NCBI GenBank assembly: GCA_964016885.1
Contig: OZ024744.1
Span: forward strand, 92,628,001-92,692,000
Direction: 5' to 3'
DNA length: 64,000 nt
Origin: Eledone cirrhosa
Lineage: Eukaryota
In this document: positions 10,568 through 40,337 of the stretch, piece after piece
Numbering within the stretch: the first letter of the stretch is position 1
Layout: every line of letters begins with the position of its first letter
Program-made: the position numbers and the translations under genes
The notes under the pieces: generated by a model
Databases searched by the model: none
What the model was told of the DNA's origin: nothing
Seen by the model: only the letters and a program-made list of their open reading frames with translations

Positions 10568-10574
<7 letters not shown>

Positions 10575-11011
10575 TAAAGTGGTCCTTCATCAGTGATCTT
10601 CCAACCATCATCGGTATTTCTTCGCTTTAAAGACAATATACCTCCGGTTGGTGCGAGCAACGGCTAAAGAAAGTCGTTGGGACATGTAAATAAAGGGAAC
10701 AGCGAGAGTTAGACCTGTACGGAATTCCTTCCTTGCTCACATTTCAACCAGGTTTGATGGTCTTTATTCTCTCTCGTTCACGATTTCACCGAACTTATAT
10801 TCATGGAAATTTTTGGACTTGACTCGCTCTTCCTCACTTTTCGTTGCTTCACCATCTTTGTTTGTTTACACTCTCGCTGTTCCCTTTATTTACATGTCCC
10901 AACGACTTTCTTTAGCCGTTGCTCGCACCAACCGGAGGTATATTGTCTTTAAAGCGAAGAAATACCGATGATGGTTGGAAGATCACTGATGAAGGACCAC
11001 TTTATTCATAT
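10568..11011. repeat. Long inverted repeat, ~142-bp arms (10568-10709 / 10870-11011), ~160-bp spacer
   Basis: Arms are reverse complements; the ORF track shows the identical peptide [31 protein letters not shown] on both strands. Confidence 0.93.
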
Positions 11012-11110
11012 GTAACCCATTTGCAACTCCGCAGCACGTTTATTCTCTCTCTCTATATATATAATAAAATAACAGGAGGCCGGACTGGTGTAATTTCTTA
11101 ACGGTTTATT

Positions 11111-11168
11111 ATACTATGAACATTTCAATGACCGGGTTCAGTATGAATCCGGTGACATCATCAGGTAT
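11111..11168 (-). ncRNA. Type I hammerhead ribozyme motif (minimal stem III)
   Basis: Minus strand reads AUAC-CUGAUGA-[ugucACCGGaUUCA uac UGAAcCCGGUcauu]-GAAA-UGUUCA-UA-GUAU. Complete core, 4-bp stem I. Confidence 0.7.
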
Positions 11169-11204
11169 TCGAAATTTAACAAAGGAATATAAAAGACACA
11201 ATCC

Positions 11205-11338
11205 ATGGGGCTTGCCATTCTGAGTTCAAATCCCGCCGAGGTTAACTTTGCCTTTCATCCTTACGGGGTCGATAAAATAAAGTACCAGTAATGTACTGGC
11301 TAATTGCTGGCCTTGTGCCAAAAAGTAGAAACAATTAT
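11205..11338 (+). mobile_element. tRNA-derived Nin/Deu-domain SINE, 5'-truncated
   Basis: B-box GAGTTCAAATCCC, central TTTGCCTTTCATCCTTACGGGGTCGATAAAATAAAGTACCAG, and tail GGCCTTGTGCCAAAAAGTAGAAACAATTATT. Confidence 0.88.
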
Positions 11339-12019
11339 TTCTTCACAAGTACATTTAAAACTTATAGCCTCGTTTAAATAGTTTTTTATGTGGTTGATTT
11401 ATACTGACTGGGAGAGGAAATACTGTATATATTTTATCTAATGGTTCTTTGGACTTGCATTTTTATACATATATATATTATTCTAGAACCTTCCTCACCT
11501 CGCTCCCTATCATTGTTTATAGCTTGCTCCTGCTCACGCCCCCCCCCCCCCTCACCCCCATTTCTTCTCTCCGCAAGTATAAAATAAACCCTGTAGGGTT
11601 CTAAGGCCAGAATTTATCTATTTAATCTCTCTTTACGGACGATTTGTCGATTTGAGAAATGTAAGAAAAACACTTGTCTTTCCATTTTTCCGCAGTGATG
11701 ACCAGTGTTTTAAACTTTTATTTATACCCGTCTAGAATCTAATCTCTCTTTTTTTCTCTCGGATTTTCAATTAATATATGACATGTTTTTAATAATATGC
11801 CTCGTTCTGTTTGGACCCTTCCTAAAAACTAACCTTCTCCTAAAGTCACCCATTTATCGCCGCCCCTGCGGAATTTGGAAAGTTTGAACACTCAATGACA
11901 ATGTCACATATAATTCACCTCCCGCTGCAGGACGAGAATGCAAGGACCCCTCTTTATTTCAGACATGGATGACCAACATAATTACGCCCCCCCCCCCATC
12001 CATTCCATCCACCCAACTT

Positions 12020-14315
12020 CAGAATTGGTACCATGAACGTAGGCACATTGTAAGGTCGCTCAAATTAGGTTGTAGAGATGCTTGAACGTAAGGATGTTTG
12101 TTGTGTTCAAGAGACTAGGTGGAGAGGGGTCTGCTAGATTTATTGTGGGTAAAAAAACGATGCTATAAACTTTTCTGGGTGGGGAATGACAACGGACTGG
12201 GTGGTGTAGGAATTATGTTAGCTGGAAAATGGGTAGATAAGGTAATTGACGTAAATAGAGTGAATGACAGAATAATTAAATTAAGACTAGTTCTTAATAG
12301 AACTACTGTGACAATAATATCCACTTATGCACCCCAATCTGGTCTACCTGACGTTATAAAGGACAGGTTCTATGAGTCGCTAATGTTCACTACCTCCCAA
12401 ATAACCGACAGTGACTACTTAATTATTGCTGACGACCTAAATGGTCATGTTGGACAACATGGCTATGCTGGAATCCATGGAGGCTATGGTTTTGGTAATA
12501 GAAATGAGGAAGACTTCAGAATCCTGGAATTCTGTGATGCTAGTAACCTATCTATCTGTAACACAAACTTCAAAAAACGAGAAAATCTCTTGATCAGACG
12601 CTCTTTTCCTTGTACGACAACTACAGGTGAAGTACCTAGTTAAAAGTAAACCCCTCTACTTAGCTTTTGTAGACCTGGAGAAAGCCTTTGACAGAGTCCC
12701 CCGCTCCATTATCTGGTGGGCTCTTAGAAAACGAGGTGTAGATGAATGGCTTGTGAGAGCTATACAAGCCATGTATAAAGAAACAGTCAGTAAGGTTAGA
12801 ATTACCAATGAATATTGTGAAGAATTTAGTGTAAAAGCTGGTGTTCATCAAGGCTCTGTCCTTAGCCCCCTCCTATTTATTATTGCCCTTCAGGCTATAA
12901 CAGAGGAGTTCAAGACCGGCTGCCCATGGGAACTCCTATACGCAGATGATCTAACTCTCATAGCTGAATCTATGGCTGAACTAGTGAAGAAATTCCAAAC
13001 ATAGAAGCATGGCCTAGAATCAAAAGGCCTTAAAGTTAACTTGTCTAAGACTAAAGTTCTAGTATGTAGAAAGGAAAATAGGGCACAGGTCCCCTCTGGG
13101 AAATGGCCATGCTCAGTGTGTAGGCAAGGAGTAGGTAGAAATTCTATTTTATGTCCCATATGCAAACTATGGGTACATAAAAGATGTAGTGGGATCACAG
13201 GTAAACTATCTAAGAACGTAGATTTTATATGTGGCCGATGCTCAGGTGCAATAAGTAACAAGTGCCCATAGGACACTAGCTCCTTCTATTGCCCAGATGG
13301 TTCTATAGAAATAGTGGACACTTTCCGTTACCTGGGTGACAAAATCAGCAGTGGTGGAGGGTGCTCTGAAAGTACAGTAGCCAGAGTCAGAACGGGATGG
13401 AAAAAGTTCAGAGAGCTTATACCGCTGTTGGCCACAAAAGGTTTCTATCTAAAAATTGTATGATGCCTGTAGACGAACAGCAATACTACATGTCAGTGAG
13501 ACATGGGCATTGTGTGCAGTGGAGCTACGCAGACTAGATAGGATCGAAGCATGCATGCTCCGTTGGATGTGTAATAGTTATATACATGAACGCAAAACAT
13601 AAATGAACTAAGTGAGAAATTAGGAATGAGAAGGATCAGATGTTGTTTACTTGAGAGAAAACTACGTTGGTATGGTCACGTGATGCGCATGAAAGACGAC
13701 AGCTGTATAAATAAAGTGCAGGGCGATCAAAACTAATGGAAGTTACGGAGTAGGAAGACCCAGAAAAACCTGGGACGAATTGATAAATTCCGACCTTACA
13801 CACTTGCACCTCTCTAAGACAATGTCACTGAACCAAGATCTTTGGCGCTATGCAGTAATACAAAAGATCCGCCTTGCCTAATTCACAAAACGAAACCTAC
13901 AGTCAGTAGGCACCTCTTAACCAAATATACACCCCAATCCACTACCCCAACCCTATCCTCCCACTCCCAATAACACCACCCTTTCTCTGTAAAGTTGGTA
14001 CCACAACATCCAGTCCAAATAAATGAGATAATGAGATCGAGATCAAGATCGTGTAGGTGTCACGACAAAAAAACACAGTCCACGGTGTAATGTGGCCATG
14101 TAGGTAACACGGTAAAAAGTTCCCAGTTCCACACTGTAAATGTGGTTAGTGTTAGGAAGGGCATCCAACCGTAGAAAACCTGCCAGATAGTCCTATATGA
14201 GCGAGATATAGTCACCCGACCAACCTTGCCTCAAATTGGGACAACTCCCGTCTAACCCATGCTAGCGTGGAAGATGGACGTTAAACGATGATGATGATGA
14301 TGATGATGATGATGA
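12020..14315 (+). mobile_element. RTE-clade LINE, decayed, with internal deletion; APE endonuclease + RT + PHD-like finger, (GAT)n tail
   Basis: APE motifs (GTMNVGTL, GVGIML, STYAPQ, DLNGHVG) and RT motifs (FVDLEKAFDRV, GVHQGSVLSPLLF, LLYADDL). 3' end ATGGACGTTAAACGATGATGAT... Confidence 0.9.
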
Positions 14316-14368
14316 TATATATATATACGATATTAAACAAATGGAAACTATATTTATAAAACCATATT

Positions 14369-14434
14369 TATTTCATTATACATATTTCGGGGATACCATA
14401 TTAAAAATATGGCATGCCATCTTCAGATAAAATA
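14369..14434 (-). ncRNA. Type I hammerhead ribozyme motif
   Basis: Minus strand reads UAUUUUAU-CUGAAGA-[uGGcAUGCCAUAUU uuu AAUAUGGUAUcCCc]-GAAA-UAUGUA-UA-AUGAAAUA. 8-bp stem I with one GU pair. Confidence 0.78.
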
Positions 14435-14639
14435 CAATATATAAACAGTTTTAAAAATAATTTTGACGTACCGTAAATATTGAGCAACCGTTATGTAGGA
14501 AGCCAGTTTTATATATATATATATATATATATATGTATTGAAATTTCCGTTGAAAACAGAAAAGGTCATAGAAGTGAAGAGTTCTCTATGTAAGTATCAG
14601 AGCAAAATTTAATGTATAAAAATCAATACAATATAATTA

Positions 14640-14709
14640 CCTCATTACCAGAGGTTTCCCGAATGAGGCGAATACGAAAGAAACGTCTTCATTCGTTCGT
14701 CAGACGAGG
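14640..14709 (-). ncRNA. Type I hammerhead ribozyme motif
   Basis: Minus strand reads CCUCGU-CUGACGA-[aCGAAUGA...UCAUUCGg]-GAAA-CCUCUGG-UA-AUGAGG. 6-bp stem I, stem III ACC/GGU, GUA cleavage triplet. Confidence 0.78.
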
Positions 14710-15385
14710 CTATATAAAACATGGGTAAATACTTAGAAAAACTCATCAAGAAAATCAAAAAAAGATATAGACAAATGAATTAGAAATTGAAATATATAAA
14801 AATCTTTCAAGAAATATAGTTAGGTGTGTGTATATGTATGTATATACGCTCACAGATGTGCATATATGTGTATGCACATATGTATACGTATAGTGAAAAA
14901 GTGTGCGTAAATATAAAATTTAGGGCAAATGTATCTGTATGTCTGTAATCTACAGACAGAATAGATACATCATAAGAATATGAAGGCACGCGCATAAACA
15001 CACCTACACACACGTACACTTAGATGCGGAAGTAAAAGAGGTAAGGGAGTGTAATAATTAAAGGAAAGTATCAATCTCGATATATTTATAAAAATGTAAC
15101 AATAATTTAGAAAGAAAAAATTAAAGAAAAGAAGACAAACATACATACATACACACGTATATCTCACAAAAGAAACGCAAAAATATACATGCTTATATAC
15201 ACACGCACACTTACACATCCATACGTTCGATACGCACACACACACACATACTTACACTCACGCATATTGACCTGTTTGCATGCACACGCATAAAAATGAG
15301 GATGTAAAAACAGGGGGAGAAGAAAAAAGGAACAAAACATAAAACCTAGATGTAAAAACACGGATATAAATACACATACACATGC

Positions 15386-15418
<33 letters not shown>

Positions 15419-15892
15419 CACGCACGTGCGCGCACATACGTAGTCGCTCATGTTCATATATAGAAAGTATACACACATTAAGGCGTTCAGCCACATTGAT
15501 ACAGGGTGTAAAAAACTTGTGGATAAGTAAGTACAACGGTTGCAACGTTTTTTGAAATATCCAGTTCTGCGTTTACAGATTGACTTTAGTTTCAGAATAT
15601 CCCGTTAAGGGTGAAAGCAGCGATTCTTTGCTTAAACTTTAATCTGTTATTTTAATAAATATATATATATATGTAGGAGGTGGGTTTTATTGCAGCAAAA
15701 TAAAGCAATACAAATATCGGATAAGTAGCACTCAACAGTTTATTGGACTTTTTTTCCTTTCTTCCTTTTCCTTACTTTTCTCCTCCTTTCCTTTTTTCCA
15801 ATCTCCTATGTCCTTTTAAATTTATTTATCATATGTTGTTTAGACACTACCTTGCTCACAAGTGTTTTTTTAAGCTTCATATCATGTCTCCC

Positions 15893-15963
15893 TATTTTAT
15901 CTGATGAGAACGCAAATATCGTCCCTGGATGATACTTGTTTTTGAAATGCGCATAATAAAATA
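15893..15963 (+). ncRNA. Type I hammerhead ribozyme motif with palindromic stem III
   Basis: UAUUUUAU-CUGAUGA-[gaacgCAAaUAUCGUCC cu GGAUGAUAcUUGuuuuu]-GAAA-UGCGCA-UA-AUAAAAUA. Perfect 8-bp stem I. Confidence 0.8.
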
Positions 15964-24249: not shown

Positions 24250-27200
24250 AGCCTCCCAAGAAAGGAACTTTCATTGGTTGATTATCTAATGATGCAAGTA
24301 GGTCTAAGCGAAGGCGTCTCACCGAAGATGTAAATGCGACTGCGATCAGGCTCTCGCAGAATGCTGTGCAGACGGCAGCTGCAGGAGCGGAGGAGGATGA
24401 CAGTCGGCGTGAACTTCGATGGAACAAAGATGCTGTTGCGACTGCTGTTGCTTGCGTTTGAGAGGATGAAGGGCGACGTGCTGTTCGACGAAGTAGGAAC
24501 ACCACTGCAACAGCCGCTGCTTGCGCTCGAGAGGATGAAGAACGACGCACCATTCGACGAAGCAGGGGAGCTGCTGCCACTGCTGCTGCACGAAATACTG
24601 AATCCATAGAGCAACGACGTGGCAGACTTCTGCAAAGTGAACAGCGGCGATCATCGTTACGTGGCATTTCTAGGACTCGCAATTCACGATGGATTTTGAA
24701 GGCCTTTAACTGCGACTCCTCCTCCAGCTACACCGTCCATGCAGATATTCAAATTGGGGAAATGACCTCTACTTGCCAGTTTTGTTGTAAGAAAAAGTGG
24801 CCAGGGGAGAGAGATGGAATGTGTTGTTCAAACGGTAAAGTTAGACTACCTCCTATTCACGACCCTCCAGAGACATTGCAGCTCCTGTTGACACACACGA
24901 CGGAGGAATGATCGAAGTTTCTGCGTAATATCTGCCGCAACAATTCCGCGTTTCAGATGACATCCGTCGGAGCAAAGCTTGCCTCGGAACGTGGGTTCAT
25001 GCCAACTTTCAAGGTCCAGGGGCAGATCTACCACTTGATTGGGTCTATTCAGCCTCTGGCAGAAAATGATCCTCAATTTCTTCAGTTATACTTCGTTGGA
25101 AACTATCAGGAGCAGACAGAGATGAGAAACTCTATTTCGTCCGAAACTAACATTGAAACCATAATAAAATTTCAAGAAATGCTTCATGACAAAAACAGCT
25201 ATGTTCGTAGTTTCAAGTACGCTTTGGAAACAGCCACCGACCCAAACTTTAGTGTGGTCATACATGCTGACCGAAGGCCATCTGGAGAACACGCTGGTCG
25301 GTTCATCGCACCAACATGTAATGAGATTGCTGCGGTTATTTGTGGTGAACAGCACAAGAGAGATATCATTCTAAAGCACCGAGACAGCCCATTACAGCGT
25401 ATCAATGAGACACACAGGTCCTACGATGCACTCCAGTATCCATTGCTATTTGTCAACGGTGAGGACGGATACCATTTCAGCATTCCTCAACATTCAACAG
25501 GCAATGGTGAGGCATATCTTAGCAAAACTGTCACCTGCATGGATTTCTACGCTTTCCGATTTATGGTAAGGGACAATTCATTCAACCATCTACACCGTTC
25601 TCGGGACCTTTTCCAACAATTTGCTGTTGTTATGGCCGTTAAAATGGAGTCCGAGAGATTATGGTTCATTAAATTAAATCAAAAGAAACTTCGATCTGAA
25701 TGCTACATTCATCTACGCGATGGAATTAACAACGACGTATCCCCAGACAATTTAGGGCAAGTGTGTATTTTGCCTTCAACGTTCACAGGGGGACCCCGAT
25801 ACATGCACAAGAGGACTCAGGACGCCATGACTTACGTACAACATTATGGGCGGCCCGACCTTTTCATAACGTTTACATGCAATCCCAAGTGGAAGGAGAT
25901 TACAAACGTACTGTTCCACAGTCAAGCGCCAAGGCACAGGCACAATCTCATAGCAAGAGTGTTTCGCCTGAAATTATCCCAATTAATGGATTTATTAAAG
26001 AAAGGACAGGTTTTTGGGCCTGTCAGGTGCGACATGTACACGGTTAAATGGCAGAAACGAGGGCTGCCGCATGCCCATATCTTGATTTGGTTGGTTACAA
26101 AAATCAATTCAAACTATATCGACAAATTTATTTCTGCCGAACTACCTGATCCATCAATTGACAAGGACCTCTTCTCTATAGTCACATCAAACATGGTCCA
26201 TGGTCCTTGCGGACATGGACTCAATATGACGTCCCCGTGCATACACGACGGAAAGTGTACAAAACGATATTCCAGGCCGTTTTTACAGGAAACACAGACT
26301 GGCGGTGACAGATATCCGTTGTATAGGTGCAGGAGACCTGAAGACGGTGGGTTCACAGCAAATGTTGGCGAACGTGAAATCGACAACAGCTGTATAGTGC
26401 CATATTGCCCCCTCCTCTTCAAAGCATTCAACGCCCATATAAACGTCGAATTATGAAACTCAGTAAAATCAGTTAAATACGTTTGTAAGTACATAAACAA
26501 GGGATTGGATGCTGCCGTCTTTGGTCTTCATCATGAAAACAGTAGAGACGAGGTATCTGACTACCAAGCAGGCCGATACATTAGCAGCAATGAAGCCTTT
26601 TGGTGCATTTTTGGCTTCCCACTGCATCAATGACACCACGTCATTAAACAACTTGCCGTTCACCTTGAAAACGGTCAATGGGTGTATTTCAATGATGCAA
26701 CAGCTGCTCAGCTAGCGATCTCACCAAAGGAAACTACACTCACCACCTTTTTCAAACTTTGTCAACACGACGACCTCGGTCGAACTCTGCTGTATTCTGA
26801 AATACCGTCTTACTATACATGGAACCGGACAAATGGCTACGAAGGAAGGTAAGGCAAGAGGTGGTTGGACATCCAGGCATCAAATTCGACTATTGTCTTG
26901 GGTGAGTTTATACGGTCCACCCTACCCAACACGAATGCTTCTACCTGCGACTTCTGCTTCATGAGGTAAGAGGGCCGACCACCTTCACTGATCTGAGAAC
27001 CGTCGATGGATACATCTGCGGAACGTACAGGGAAGCCTGCTTGAGGCGTCGACTTTTAGAAGATGAGGCACCATGGGATGCAACCTTGACGGAAGCTGCC
27101 ATCTCACAATCATCCCGTAGTCTAGGGGCAGTTTTTGCTATCCTCTTGCACGTCTGTGAATTGAGCGATCCTTACTCTTTATGGCAAAAGTTTAAAGATG

Positions 27201-28822
27201 ATTTCGCAGACGAATATAGGCATCTCGCTCAATTGCAATCTCCAAACTTAGATAAGGGCTTTTCAGACGCTATATATAACAGAGCTCTGATCGATATTGA
27301 AGACAGAGTGGCTTGAATGGGTGGAGATGTCTTGGAGAAATATGGGCTTCCGCAAACACTTCGAGATGCGCCATCTGACATTCCCAACGACATTATACGT
27401 GAAACGTCATATGATGTCGACGAACTCAAAAGGTATGTTGAAGAAAATGAACCAAAACTTCTAATGGATCATAAACAAGCCTATAACATTGTTATTGATT
27501 CCATCCGTAATCGGAGAGGGGGTATATTCTTCCTGGATGCACCTGGAGGCACGGGCAAAACATTTGTAATCAAACTTTTACTCGCTGCAGTGAGGCAACA
27601 CGGAAACATCGCATTGGCCGTGGCTTCTTCTGGCATTGCAGCAACTTTGCTGCCTGGTGGCAGGACGGCCCATTCTGCCTTCAGTCTTCCTCTCAGCGTG
27701 ACATCATCTGAGACACCCACGTGCAACATCAGCAAGTCTTCTGGGAAAGCACTGGTGTTAAAGCGCTGCCTACTAATTGTTTGGGACGAATGCACAAATG
27801 ACCACAAGGCGGCTTTCGAGGCATTAGACCGGTCACTCAGAGACATCAGGGACTGTCAAGAACAAATGGGAGGTGTCACTTTCCTGTTATCTGGAGACTT
27901 CCGACAGACTCTGGCTGTATTCCCAAAAGGTACGTGGGCTGATGAGGTTGGTGCATCCCTTAAGGACTCCCCACTTTGGCGTTATGTAAGAAAGCTGACG
28001 CTTACAACAAACATAAGAGCACAACTGCAAGGTGATACGACATCAGCGGGCTTTGCTGCTGCCATTTTGCCGTTGGGAGATGGCAATGTCCTACTCGACG
28101 GAGATGGTGCAGCGGACCTCACAGGGATGTGCAGATGCGTTAAGTCAATTGCCGAGTAACGGACGTCTGCTTTTTCTAATCTTGAGGAGAACTACACAAA
28201 TCAAGAGTGGTTGTGTGAACGCGCAATATTGGCTTCGAAAAACCACATAGTTGGAAACATCAATGAACAGCTCATGCTGTGCTTGCCTGGAAACCTGCAT
28301 GTCTACAAGTCCCTTGACTCTATGGCTGATCCTGACGAAGTTGTTAATTACCCCACAGAATTTCTTAACTCCCTAGATCCTCCCGGATTGCCACCACACT
28401 TTCTGCGACTTAAGAAAGGTGCCCCTGTCATGTTCCACAAGAATTTGGAACCCCGAAGGCTTTCCAACAGCACGCGTCTGGTCGTCCAAAAGGCGATACC
28501 TCATGTTATTGAGGCAACAATACTTACAGGATGTGGTAAGGAGGATACTGTCTTCATACCAAGGATATCTCTCATTCCATCCGGTAAAGACATTCCTTTC
28601 TCATTCAGAAGGTTGCAATTCCCTCTCCGGCTCAGTTTAGCCATGTCGATTAACAAATCACAGGGTCAGATGCTGACGGTCGTAGGACTTAATTTAGAAG
28701 AACCGTTCTTCTCCCATGGTCAACTATATGTTGGCTGCTCTCGAGTGGGGAGCCGACATAACCTATTTGCTTTTGCAACTCGCGAGAAAACCCAAAATAT
28801 AGTCTATAAGAAAGTTTTATAG
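24250..28822 (+). pseudogene. Helitron Rep (HUH/Y2) - Pif1 helicase, broken by several stops and frameshifts
   Basis: Rep motifs LFITFTCNPKW, WQKRGLPHAHILIW, KSVKYVCKYINKG. Helicase motifs DAPGGTGKT, IVWDEC, GDFRQ, AMSINKSQG, HGQLYVGCSRV. Confidence 0.96.
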
Positions 28823-29169: not shown

Positions 29170-29582
29170 TGAAGGACTTCTTAAGGGCCACCACCTCTAA
29201 TCGGAGTCGTCTTTGCTGACAGCTCTGCCACTGGGACTTTTAAGAGTGAACGATCCAAGGCCCTCTTCAGGGCCACCAAGTTTAAATTGTTACCATCGGA
29301 TTCATCTTTGCTGGCAGCACCGCCGCTCAGATATTTCAAAGTGAACGTTAAAAGGTCCTCTTCAGGGCCACCAACTATAAATTGTTATCGCTGGATTCGT
29401 CTTTGCTGGCAGCTCTGCCGCTGAGACTTTTAAGATTGAACGATCCAAGGCTCTCTTTAGGGCCACCAACTTTAAATTGTTACCATCGGATTCGTCTTTG
29501 CTGGCAGTACCACCGCAGAGATATTTCAAAGTAAACGTTCAAAGGCCCTCTTTAGGGTCAACACCTATAAATTGTTACTTCT
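29170..29582. repeat. ~95-100-bp imperfect tandem repeats in the Helitron 3' region
   Basis: Recurring AGGGCCACCAA..AAATTGTTA..GGATTCGTCTTTGCTGGCAG units, about 4 copies. Confidence 0.8.
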
Positions 29583-34746: not shown

Positions 34747-34838
34747 TCCAGCAGAAGCAAGGGGAACAACTGTCTATGCATATCAGGCTTGACTGGCCAT
34801 CGTCAGGACGATGTCTCCCCCTTCTTGCAACTGCTGGA
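34747..34838 (-). ncRNA. Type I hammerhead motif with long extended stem I; core carries a GAAA>GAUA change
   Basis: Minus strand reads UCCAGCAGuuGCAAGaaGGGGgagacaucGUC-CUGACGA-uGGCcagucaaGCCu-GAUA-UGCA-UA-GACaguuguuCCCCUUGCuuCUGCUGGA. Confidence 0.68.
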
Positions 34839-36898: not shown

Positions 36899-39800
36899 CT
36901 ACAGGCTGATATAGAGAGAAGACCCATTCACTCTGGCCATTCTCCCTACTTTCACCCACCTTTCATAAAACTTGCTGGGGTAGAGCACCTCTCTCTCCAT
37001 TCTGATCCTTCTTTTAAAATGGTATTTGAAAAAGGGGACCAGTTGTTGGCCGGAGAGAAAGGTGTCTGACCTCAGCCCTTTCAGCCTCGTCCACCATACA
37101 ACTTCTTTAGCCATGGCTACCACACAGAGAAAAACCGCCTCTCCTTCGTTTTTGAAGGGGGGAGGCGGTTTGATCGTGACAATGGACTCGGTGGTCAACC
37201 GGATTGGTCCCACCCTCGACAGTAGTCGTTCCACATAGCCCCACAGGTCAGCAATGCCTGGGCAGTGTACGAATGCGTGCGCAACGGTTTCGTCATCATG
37301 CACGCATCTCGGACAGATCTTATTCAAAGGATCTCTACCCAGGCTCCCATGCCTGTGGAGCTTGTCTCGAACGGGTAGAGCCCCTCGGTAGCACTGCCAA
37401 GCCAGGGACTTTTGGAAGTTGTCCATCGGTCCAGGGCCAAACGTCCTACCGAACAGACTGGCCAGTTCATCTTCCTCCATGCCTAGAGCTTCTCCGAGAG
37501 CATCGTCGCACCTGCTGCGTACCAACCCTCTATAGAATGTCGAGGTGGAGTCTCCACTGATTGCCGGGTCCGCTTTCCAGAGGGCCGTGAGCGCCTGGGC
37601 ACATTCAATGTGCCAGTCGCCCACTTTTCTCGGTCTTTGCTTGACCCAGGATTGCAGCTCGGTGAGCGAGACGAGTCTGGGAAAGGCTCGCCTCACAAAC
37701 GGGGCCCACACCGGTTGACCGGTGAGGAATACCTGGAGGTGCCGTAGCCTTAATGCGTGTTTACGCATCTGTAGCCACGGCATCCCCAGCCCTCCTTTCG
37801 AAGGGTGTTGACAACAGATGGATCTCCTCACCAAAGGGGTCCGCTTGTTCCAAAGAAATTGGAACAGCGCGCACTCCATTTTGGCGAGTCTTTTCACTGG
37901 GCAAGGCACGACGGTCAAGCGGTAGTAGATGACGGATGCTATATAAGTATTCGCCACCTCCGCTCGACCTTTCAGGGATAGTTTGCACTGGGCCCACTTC
38001 TGGGTGAGTGCAAACACCCTGGCCGTTACCTCGTTCCAGTTTTTCTCCACCTGGAGGTCTGGTCCGAACCAGACCCCAAGCAGCTTCACCGGGCCCTCCG
38101 TCCAGCGTCCGACGACGTCGTTGGAGGGCATCGGTTTGCCTCTCCATGTTCCGAGTTGCAAACCGACGGACTTGTCCCGGTTCAGCTTGGCTCCTGTAAA
38201 CCTTTCATATTCCTCCAGTAAGGTGCCGATCTCACCGATTTGCGAGGTTTTCGACACCATTACTGTCACGTCATCGGCGTAGGCCGACGCCGCTTTCTGC
38301 AATCCCGGTTCCAAAGGGATGCCCTGCAACCGCTCCAACTTCCGCAGTAGTGGCTCAAGAGCCAGCACATACAGTAGGGAGGAGAGAGGGCATCCCTGTC
38401 GGATGGATCGCATGATTTGGAACGGCTCCGAGAGGTGGCCGTTCACCTTGACCCTTGAGCAGACGTTGCTGCTGTGCATCGCAGCAATCCAACCCCTGAA
38501 AACGGGTCCGAAGCCTGCCGCCGCGAGCACCGCATCCAGGTAACGATGGTCAACCCTATCGAAAGCTTTAGATTGATCCAAGTTGATCAGGGCCCCACCA
38601 AAGCCGGGTTCATTCCCTACCCTCTCTATGATGTATCGCATAAGGTGGAGATTGTCGTGAATGGACCTGGACGGGATTGCGCATGTCTGCGCTTCTCCCA
38701 TCAGGTTTCCAACGACAAGCGCCAACCTCTTCGCTAACACCTTGGCCAAAATCTTTAACTCTGTATTTAGCAGAGTTATGGGCCTGAAGTTACTTATGTC
38801 ATCCCCCTTGTTCTCATCCTTCCTCACCAGCGTAACTACGCCCTTGGTCACAGAACTGGGAATTCTCCCGTTCTGCTGCCAGTTGCAGTAGACCGCTTCG
38901 AGGATATCGGAGAACAAGTCCGGCATCGCTACATATAGCTCGTATGGTAGACCATCGAGACCCGGGGATTTGCGTTTGCCGCATTGGCTCAGCGCCGCCC
39001 CTATCTCAGCAGCTGAAATCGTCCTTTCGCAGGACTTCGCCTCCGCGTCCGAGAGGCGCGGCAGACCGTCGAGGTATGGATTGAAATCCATAGTCTCACC
39101 CGGCGCGCCGCCCCTCTCGAACAGTCGTGCAAAGTGCCGCTGAAAGGCCGCACACATCTGCCCAGGTTCAAGGATCACACGCCCATCCTGGTCCTTCAAA
39201 GACCGAATCGTGGACTTGTTCCCACTTTTTGCCTCTGTCACTCGGGCCCAGCTCACAGCTTTGGCTCCCTCATTACCCAGAGCACGTATTTTACTCCTGA
39301 CAACGCAGCCTTCATGCTTCACCTCAAAGAACTGGTCTAAGGCCATTCTTGATGCCAGCACGCCGGCTACATTGCCACTCCTAATCGCCTCTTCTACTCT
39401 ATCTACTAATTCCCTTTCCGTCTTGTTCCTATCCCTTGCTAATTCCTGACTAAAACCTATCGATTCTATTCTAATTGCTCTCTTAAGAGAGCTCCACCAC
39501 CTGTTGTTGACAATTGCCCCTGTCAAACTCTGCTTAACTAACGTGCTAATCCGTTTACTGTAAGCTTTGCTTCTCGGTAAGGACAAGTTCAGCTTCCAGT
39601 AACCGGGTCCCTGTCTATGGGTTCTATCAAGGTTGGCTATGCAGGTCACTAACTTGTGATCCGAATAGTCAACCATGAACATTTTTGGACAGCTAAATGT
39701 GTCCCTATCGTTCTCTCTAACTAGGACCCTATCTAGGTACGACCTAGATGTTCCACTGCGATTGGTCCACGTCCATAGTGGTACAGTCGGAAAATCTAGT

Positions 39801-40337
39801 CGATATCTATCGGCCAGGTCAAATCGGCCGATTAACCTTTTGAGGCTTTTACACCCCCCTCTATTGGCACATGCCCCTACATAGTCCCAACGTGCATCCA
39901 GGATACCATTCCAGTCCCCCACTAAAAGCAAGGAGCGGGACGTTCCCAGAAAAGTTTCCAGACGTTGGAAGTATTCCGGCCGCGCTGCCCAAAAAGGGGC
40001 GTACACAGCTATTAGTCTAAGGGCTCCACTTTCACTACTGCCGACGTCTAAAACCACCAGTCGACCCTCCGGGTCCAGGTGCACCTTCTGTATGGCGAGG
40101 CCCAGGTGTTTTCGCAGCAGAACGACAACTCCACCCCCACCCCCCCGGTTGACAGAGAGATGCGAAGATCTCAAAGTCGTCGAAGAGGGGCGCCAGTTGG
40201 TGCTCGCTGCTGATCCTGGACTCGCAAATAGCCATTACATCCATTCTATGCGACCTGAGATCGTTTAAAAGTTTGCCTTGTTTCCAAGACAGTCCCAGGC
40301 CACGTACATTCAGACACCCAACTCTTATATCAGCCAT
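36899..40337 (-). CDS. ORF2: APE endonuclease + reverse transcriptase + C-terminal zinc-binding motif; one frameshift near 40140
   Basis: MADIRVGCLNVRGL start, then GDWNGILD, SYLDR, SDH, KSPGLDGL, FRPITLLN, DQSKAFDRV, QGCPLS, YADD, CPRC..ETVAHAFVHC. Open for 1091 aa after the shift. Confidence 0.93.

Follow-up and report, generated by a model that had tools for sequence, protein, structure and literature searches.

A 64,000-nucleotide stretch of the Eledone cirrhosa genome (assembly GCA_964016885.1, contig OZ024744.1, positions 92,628,001 to 92,692,000; hereafter the window, with positions counted from its first letter) carries four sequences that resemble type I hammerhead ribozymes, all within 4.9 kb. 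This raises the question of whether these motifs are real, what kind of DNA they belong to, and whether they could cut the RNA in which they lie. The four motifs, denoted A, B, C and D, are real hammerheads, each terminating a different dispersed repeat on its 3′ side. The account that we favour, and consider probable, is that they are type I cores ending four independent, 5′-truncated repeats that adjoin (TA)n, three of them from the Hydra clade of Penelope-like elements, and that they cut only as dimers, in head-to-tail transcripts. With cutting confined to dimers in element transcripts, the lone stubs of the window are likely to be inert.

Hammerhead motifs in the window

The descriptor used for the search comprises CUGANGA, a closed stem II of 8–60 nt (−3 kcal/mol or lower), GAAA, a paired stem III, UH, and a stem I of at least 4 bp. 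It returned exactly four matches in the window:

11111..11168, minus strand: hammerhead A; stem I of 4 bp, stem II of 31 nt, stem III strand AUGUUCAU; predicted cut 3′ of 11115
14369..14434, minus strand: hammerhead B; stem I of 8 bp, stem II of 31 nt, palindromic stem III strand AUAUGUAU; predicted cut 3′ of 14377
14639..14710, minus strand: hammerhead C; stem I of 7 bp, stem II of 38 nt, stem III of 3 bp with a 3-nt loop; predicted cut 3′ of 14646
15893..15963, plus strand: hammerhead D; stem I of 8 bp, stem II of 36 nt, perfect 8-nt palindrome AUGCGCAU; predicted cut 3′ of 15955

The CUGANGA, GAAA and UH core is present in type I order in all four, the cleavage triplets are AUA, AUA, GUA and AUA (A to D), and stem II is 31–38 nt long throughout. 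A preliminary description of this DNA had placed A, B and D exactly; for C it gave 14640–14709, which is corrected here to 14639–14710. It had also placed a fifth core at 34747–34838 (minus strand). A–D are indeed complete, whereas the fifth (family E, 34772–34809, minus strand) reads CUGACGA...GAUA in place of GAAA. Since the core is intact in 14 of 16 E homologues from outside the pattern-selected loci, the window copy of E is a decayed one. The non-Watson-Crick first pair of stem II, likewise put forward there, is found in the window copies (U-U, U-C, A-G and G-U); but in 18 of the 28 B/D representatives described below this pair is Watson-Crick, and in 7 more it is G-U, so it is no mark of the family.

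Conservation of the hammerhead fold

E-value scans of the window with Rfam gave no hammerhead family among the listed matches, and none was seen among the best 150 of 308 matches in four other loci, all of them repeat-driven. Taken alone, this would agree with A–D being chance matches in AT-rich DNA. That explanation is ruled out with near certainty by shuffling and by covariation. The real window has four matches; dinucleotide shuffling gave one match in 150 windows when done in 500-bp blocks and none in 150 when done in 5-kb blocks, one in 300 shuffled windows overall. In a wider genome sample of 799,800 bases, 29 strict motifs were found, compared with none in each of eight shuffles. The stems covary among the B and D relatives, and the ribozyme has a fixed position within the 3′ ends of the elements.

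Covariation among paralogues is seen in stem II across the relatives of B and D. These were picked by stem I and core letters, independently of stem II, which gave 28 representatives (at least 26 nt). Pairs 1–3 and 5–7 of stem II are paired in 25–28 of the 28, with A-U/G-C and U-A/C-G swaps, while pair 4 is mismatched in 27 (C-C in 15, C-U in 11). The C-C at this position is also found in motif A and is not found in motif C. A pairing alignment of 26 of the representatives (L008 and L042 left out) and the two window copies has 96.6% of 503 stem cells paired, against 89.0% when shuffled and 36–62% in slid controls. Two-sided changes occur at 7 pairs, comprising six of seven in stem II and one of three in stem III; stem I was used in the selection, and the rows represent few lineages, so that events are fewer than cells. 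B and D align as a single superfamily, contrary to the earlier statement that the stem II sequences are unrelated. In C-type motifs, each position of stem I is paired in 7–8 of 8.

Families B, C and D and their parent elements

Searches of the same genome gave 1539 (A), 1211 (B), 1806 (C), 1422 (D) and 2356 (E) first-look candidates, of which 40 per family were scored. The best copies are 97–99% identical for B, C and D, 95–96% for A and 83–92% for E. Copies of each family occur across many chromosomes and frequently have an inverted partner in head-to-head arrangement; they have a common 3′ end at (TA)n and a varying 5′ end. The features of B, C and D in the window are:

14317..14509, minus strand: family B stub; 3′ end of a putative Hydra-clade Penelope-like element, (TA)n on both sides, 93–94% identical to L204/L206
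14539..15600, minus strand: family C stub; about 1.06 kb of 3′ untranslated region (UTR) and a 68-bp tail (14539–14606) of a putative Hydra-clade element; 5′ end approximate
15655..15749, minus strand: inverted 95-bp family D tail, matching in reverse the sequence just 3′ of D in L212
15750..16000, plus strand: family D stub; 3′ end of a putative Hydra-clade element, ending in (TA)n, 94–96% identical to L214/L212

The inverted D tail at 15655..15749 is the remnant of an inverted 5′ partner of the kind typical of Penelope-like insertions.

Walking upstream from C leads to an open reading frame (ORF). Among 59,779 candidates for it found with a 180-aa query, the 150 matches that were scored are 95–100% identical. 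An open frame of 719 codons, or 712 aa counted from the first ATG, is present in all five family C loci fetched; the ribozyme follows on the same strand about 1.2–1.3 kb downstream, with the predicted cut site 1274 and 1287 nt past the stop codon in the two loci measured. A second ORF is colinear with the ribozyme of B across 3.1–3.5 kb in three loci (3.4 kb in L204/L206), and a third, belonging to D, is known from broken or partial copies. The three are mutually about 37–53% identical over their aligned parts. That the ribozymes sit in DNA with no ORF, as first described, is thus true of the stubs and not of longer B, C and D copies; a reverse transcriptase (RT) remnant of a long interspersed nuclear element (LINE) moreover lies between A and B.

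The marks of the Hydra clade are RWK, DKT, a CxCX5C linker, and CxxC and CxH near the C terminus (PMC8557442). The corresponding motifs are:

Family C ORF: RWK, DKT, CSCRIKSEC, CTLC, CPH
Family B ORF: RWR (RWK varied), DKT, CNCRNKSKC, CDLC, CRH
Family D ORF: RWI (RWK varied), DKT, CNCPNRTKC, CNLC, CIH

Further marks of the clade, namely (TA)n insertion, the 3′ hammerhead, the inverted partner and the optional tail, are found in all three families. Matches at E 1e-30 or better number 1670 of the 8000 database proteins scored, and each ORF motif is kept in 116–118 of 120 proteins among the matches listed. The ORF is predicted to encode a single protein with RT followed by a C-terminal endonuclease, the latter assigned by the PMC8557442 motifs alone. 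An AlphaFold model of the C protein has a mean predicted local distance difference test (pLDDT) value of 91.7, and its best Foldseek matches are telomerase RTs (E 1e-9, template modelling score about 0.35), as expected for a Penelope-like RT. On motifs and architecture, with the references compared in print, B, C and D are classified as Hydra-clade Penelope-like elements. In locus L201 the 5′ UTR and ORF are immediately preceded by the end of the C tail sequence, as would be expected if templates exceed one unit.

Families A and E

Two further families carry hammerheads in elements in which no ORF was found:

11054..11212, minus strand: family A stub; 5′-truncated 3′ end of an element of about 2.07 kb, ending at (TA)n, 90–95% identical by blastn to L208/L209/L211
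34707..35014, minus strand: family E; about 1.1 units resembling a retrozyme, with a 33-bp terminal direct repeat; core at 34772–34809 with GAUA for GAAA

In two independent loci the 3′ end of A is joined to the same 5′ start, a head-to-tail junction that defines the unit of about 2.07 kb. Besides this junction, A shows a tail, the (TA)n target and an inverted partner. No remnant of an RT-endonuclease ORF was detected in four long A loci by tblastn and a 60-protein Hydra profile; an ORF upstream of A in L084 was considered as its own and rejected, as it belongs to another repeat. A is probably carried as a non-autonomous passenger by Hydra-clade elements. The ORF-less body of A in L208 contains two related internal segments of about 270 bp that are richer in GC.

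The tandem pattern of E gave 51 exact matches, against none for the reversed control. Its unit of about 325 nt (327 nt in L226) is arranged head to tail, with about 1.2–2.7 units in the 20 loci examined and inverted partners in 12 of them, and no match to the Hydra profile was found in three loci. By its sequence organization, E is likely a non-LTR retrozyme (one without long terminal repeats). A large segmental tandem repeat lies at G000:C12:17.0-17.5 Mb (L093-L098, L100, L103): its eight segments, nearly identical and spaced by about 60 kb, each include an E copy.

Proposed cleavage as dimers and the probable fate of lone copies

In the proposed mechanism, two ribozymes in a transcript of more than one unit would pair through their palindromic stem III, cut after NUA and release unit-length RNA. 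The RT-endonuclease of the element would nick (TA)n and begin copying about 40–55 or 110–200 nt past the ribozyme site, and early termination would leave short stubs in which the ribozyme is almost always retained. Dimer cleavage with weak monomers has been reported for Penelope-like (PMC4209133) and axolotl (PMC7229834) ribozymes, and the RT of an anole element begins at either of two internal positions (PMC11167929). Measured from the predicted cut site, the 3′ ends of A–D have a bimodal distribution, the signature of the tail:

Family A: 40–59 nt past the cut in 19/52 copies; 160–209 nt in 26/52
Family B: 40–69 nt in 32/58; 130–149 nt in 23/58
Family C: 30–49 nt in 9/40; 100–129 nt in 30/40
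Family D: 30–59 nt in 47/56; 120–149 nt in 8/56

None of the stem III strands of the motifs folds alone as a hairpin, and computed stem III self-duplexes range from −1.8 to −10.5 kcal/mol. No window stub has a partner of its own family on the same strand. Heterodimers in cis were considered and rejected: among A, B and C the stem III duplexes are unfavourable, and B and D, whose stem I arms are compatible, are on opposite strands.

Several results weigh against the favoured account. The stem III self-duplexes of A and B are weak (−1.8 and −2.2), and the minimum-energy folds of C and D in context do not have the hammerhead shape. Two complete ribozymes on the same strand were found in none of the five fetched family C loci. 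Pfam gave no RT or GIY-YIG match on the Hydra ORFs, a sequence search of the PDB gave nothing significant, and A is tied to Penelope-like elements by architecture alone. In the anole study, ribozyme cleavage was dispensable for insertion in vitro, and no RNA-sequencing ends were located at the site (PMC11167929). Insertion in that study was not impaired by catalytic mutants, which suits a reading in which the hammerhead fold persists chiefly to bind the element RT or to set its start site, with cleavage incidental. The 3′ ends at fixed distances from the ribozyme would fit such a role, as would the 205 of 209 copies that extend past the predicted cut site, so that templates would be uncut or re-ligated; this count is, however, biased, since many copies were found by queries spanning the site. 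The core letters and the UH site are common to unrelated families while the stems vary, which speaks against a mere scaffold, with the proviso that the selection patterns required both. On balance we consider a scaffold role quite improbable.

Lone copies might instead cut as monomers, with help from a protein or from their long stem II, and thereby cleave host read-through or intronic RNA, as the preliminary description had suggested. C is able to form a stem III of 3 bp with a 3-nt loop, stem I of B runs well past 8 bp in context, fungal Penelope-like (PMC4209133) and coral retrozyme (PMC7229834) ribozymes cut as monomers, and the anole ribozyme is protein-assisted (PMC11167929). Yet those monomer-active examples have a longer stem III or canonical loop contacts, and here none of the stem III strands makes a stable hairpin by itself. 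Nor was a host exon recognized by Pfam in 94 frames tested (window 1–24000 and 40 kb of flanks), although small exons would escape; the only matches were to RT, endonuclease, PHD and C2H2 domains, which appear to be transposon remnants. Monomer cleavage is thus regarded as unlikely. It is also considered unlikely that the long-stem-II type with its C-pyrimidine mismatch at pair 4 is a distinct subtype, in which the mismatch would replace the loop 2 contact and single copies would be active, about 100,000 of them cutting host transcripts, with A a 2-kb retrozyme moved by Hydra elements.

Density of hammerhead motifs in the genome

Density was estimated from 80 evenly spaced 10-kb stretches (799,800 bases; 19 of them on this chromosome, with some chromosomes and all small contigs unsampled). 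The 29 strict motifs correspond to about 1 per 28 kb and extrapolate to about 109,000 in the 3.0-Gb genome (interval 67,000–157,000). Genome searches and density sampling thus bear out the earlier view that several ribozyme-bearing retroelement families, both Penelope-like and of retrozyme type, are present at high density. The reading of the cluster as a unit is not supported, the four insertions being independent. Per 64 kb 2.3 motifs are expected, and a special cluster was rejected because four motifs in a window are ordinary at the sampled density (probability of four or more, 0.20). Four within 4.9 kb have a Poisson probability of 0.0014 per window, and about 66 such windows are expected genome-wide. 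(TA)n makes up 4.8% of the cluster patch, compared with 0.7% of the window and a sample median of 1.8%, and the clustering likely reflects a common (TA)n target. Two further motifs lie in 40 kb of window flanks.

Other hammerhead families, with a stem II of 48–51 nt and palindromic stem III strands, were observed in L247, L287, L289 and L217. In L315 (G000:C28:110000001-110010000) a unit of about 422 bp, with another type I hammerhead family, runs head to tail through all 10 kb (21 matches) as a long retrozyme-like array.

Comparison with known systems

The families resemble the Hydra clade (PMC8557442) in the ORF motifs, C-terminal endonuclease, (TA)n insertion, inverted 5′ partner and optional tail, and in having a type I hammerhead, located close to the 3′ end, whose stem III is short and palindromic. 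The octopus family Hydra-1_Obim and its hammerhead were published by Craig et al. 2021 (PMC8557442), and its printed protein, compared by eye, has many motifs in common with family C. The Hydra-1_oBim ribozyme differs, with a stem II of 7 bp and another sequence, compared with 31–38 nt here. Hammerheads were thus already listed for Hydra-clade elements, including Hydra-1_oBim (PMC8557442 File S2), and the motifs are not of a hidden or unannotated kind, as had been proposed. Set against the same paper, A and B/D have the C-pyrimidine mismatch at pair 4, the 3′ UTRs are 1.2–1.7 kb long, and the tails measure 70–140 bp as opposed to 30–40 bp.

The minimal Penelope-like hammerheads of Cervera and De la Peña 2014 (PMC4209133) are alike in being type I with a larger stem II and a palindromic stem III region; they too are mostly solitary in truncated elements, form opposite-strand pairs 100–700 bp apart and number thousands per genome. 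They differ in that stem III is lacking or nearly so and G10.1-C11.1 is kept, whereas the motifs here have a stem III strand of 8–9 nt and a variable first pair of stem II. The count estimated here is more than ten times the maximum in that paper (about 9,000), with different descriptors; the axolotl has 126,247 hammerhead motifs (PMC7229834).

E resembles non-LTR retrozymes (Cervera and De la Peña 2020, PMC7229834; bioRxiv 10.64898/2026.07.22.740005) in its head-to-tail unit of about 325 nt in which no ORF was found, and in its type I hammerhead of canonical size with a short palindromic stem III (PMC7229834). It differs in its number of units (about 1.2–2.7, not long arrays) and frequent inverted partners, and is known here from genomic copies. 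The unit of A, at 2.07 kb, is far above the retrozyme monomers of about 300 bp that have been described. The 2026 preprint (bioRxiv 10.64898/2026.07.22.740005) derives retrozymes from Penelope-like elements.

A literature search found no survey of cephalopod hammerheads or retrozymes, subscription journals being outside its coverage. Within the coverage of that search, these families, the long stem II with its pair-4 mismatch, the density and cephalopod retrozymes seem to be unreported so far. The gain is one of annotation more than of surprise: Rfam misses the ribozymes and Pfam the ORFs, in a genome where these motifs number roughly 100,000 and where young families of the Hydra clade keep their frames intact. 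It provides a natural panel, with visible covariation, for asking what Penelope-like hammerheads do, and the pair-4 mismatch is a structural oddity open to testing.

Surroundings in the window

The window is a transposon graveyard. Apart from the ribozyme elements, it includes between A and B:

12119..13900, plus strand: broken LINE remnant; RVT_1 (E 2.7e-17) at 12594–13001, PHD at 13005–13268; right end approximate

Homology to this remnant reaches about 14300 in other loci. At 10572–11045 a fold-back element between (TA)n has a CUGAUGA box with no matching GAAA nearby, in a Penelope-like inverted layout. The 3′ end of a repeat at 15540–15672 has a hammerhead-like layout in which the first box is CAGAAGA in most copies, in place of CUGANGA, and could be a variant or a dead motif. 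A Helitron coding region at 24912–28819 is largely intact (Helitron_like_N). After it, at 29200–29578, come four 95-bp repeats that match the histone 3′ stem-loop weakly, scoring under the Rfam threshold. Finally, a LINE open frame of 1111 codons with endonuclease, RT and zf-RVT domains lies on the minus strand at 36902–40234.

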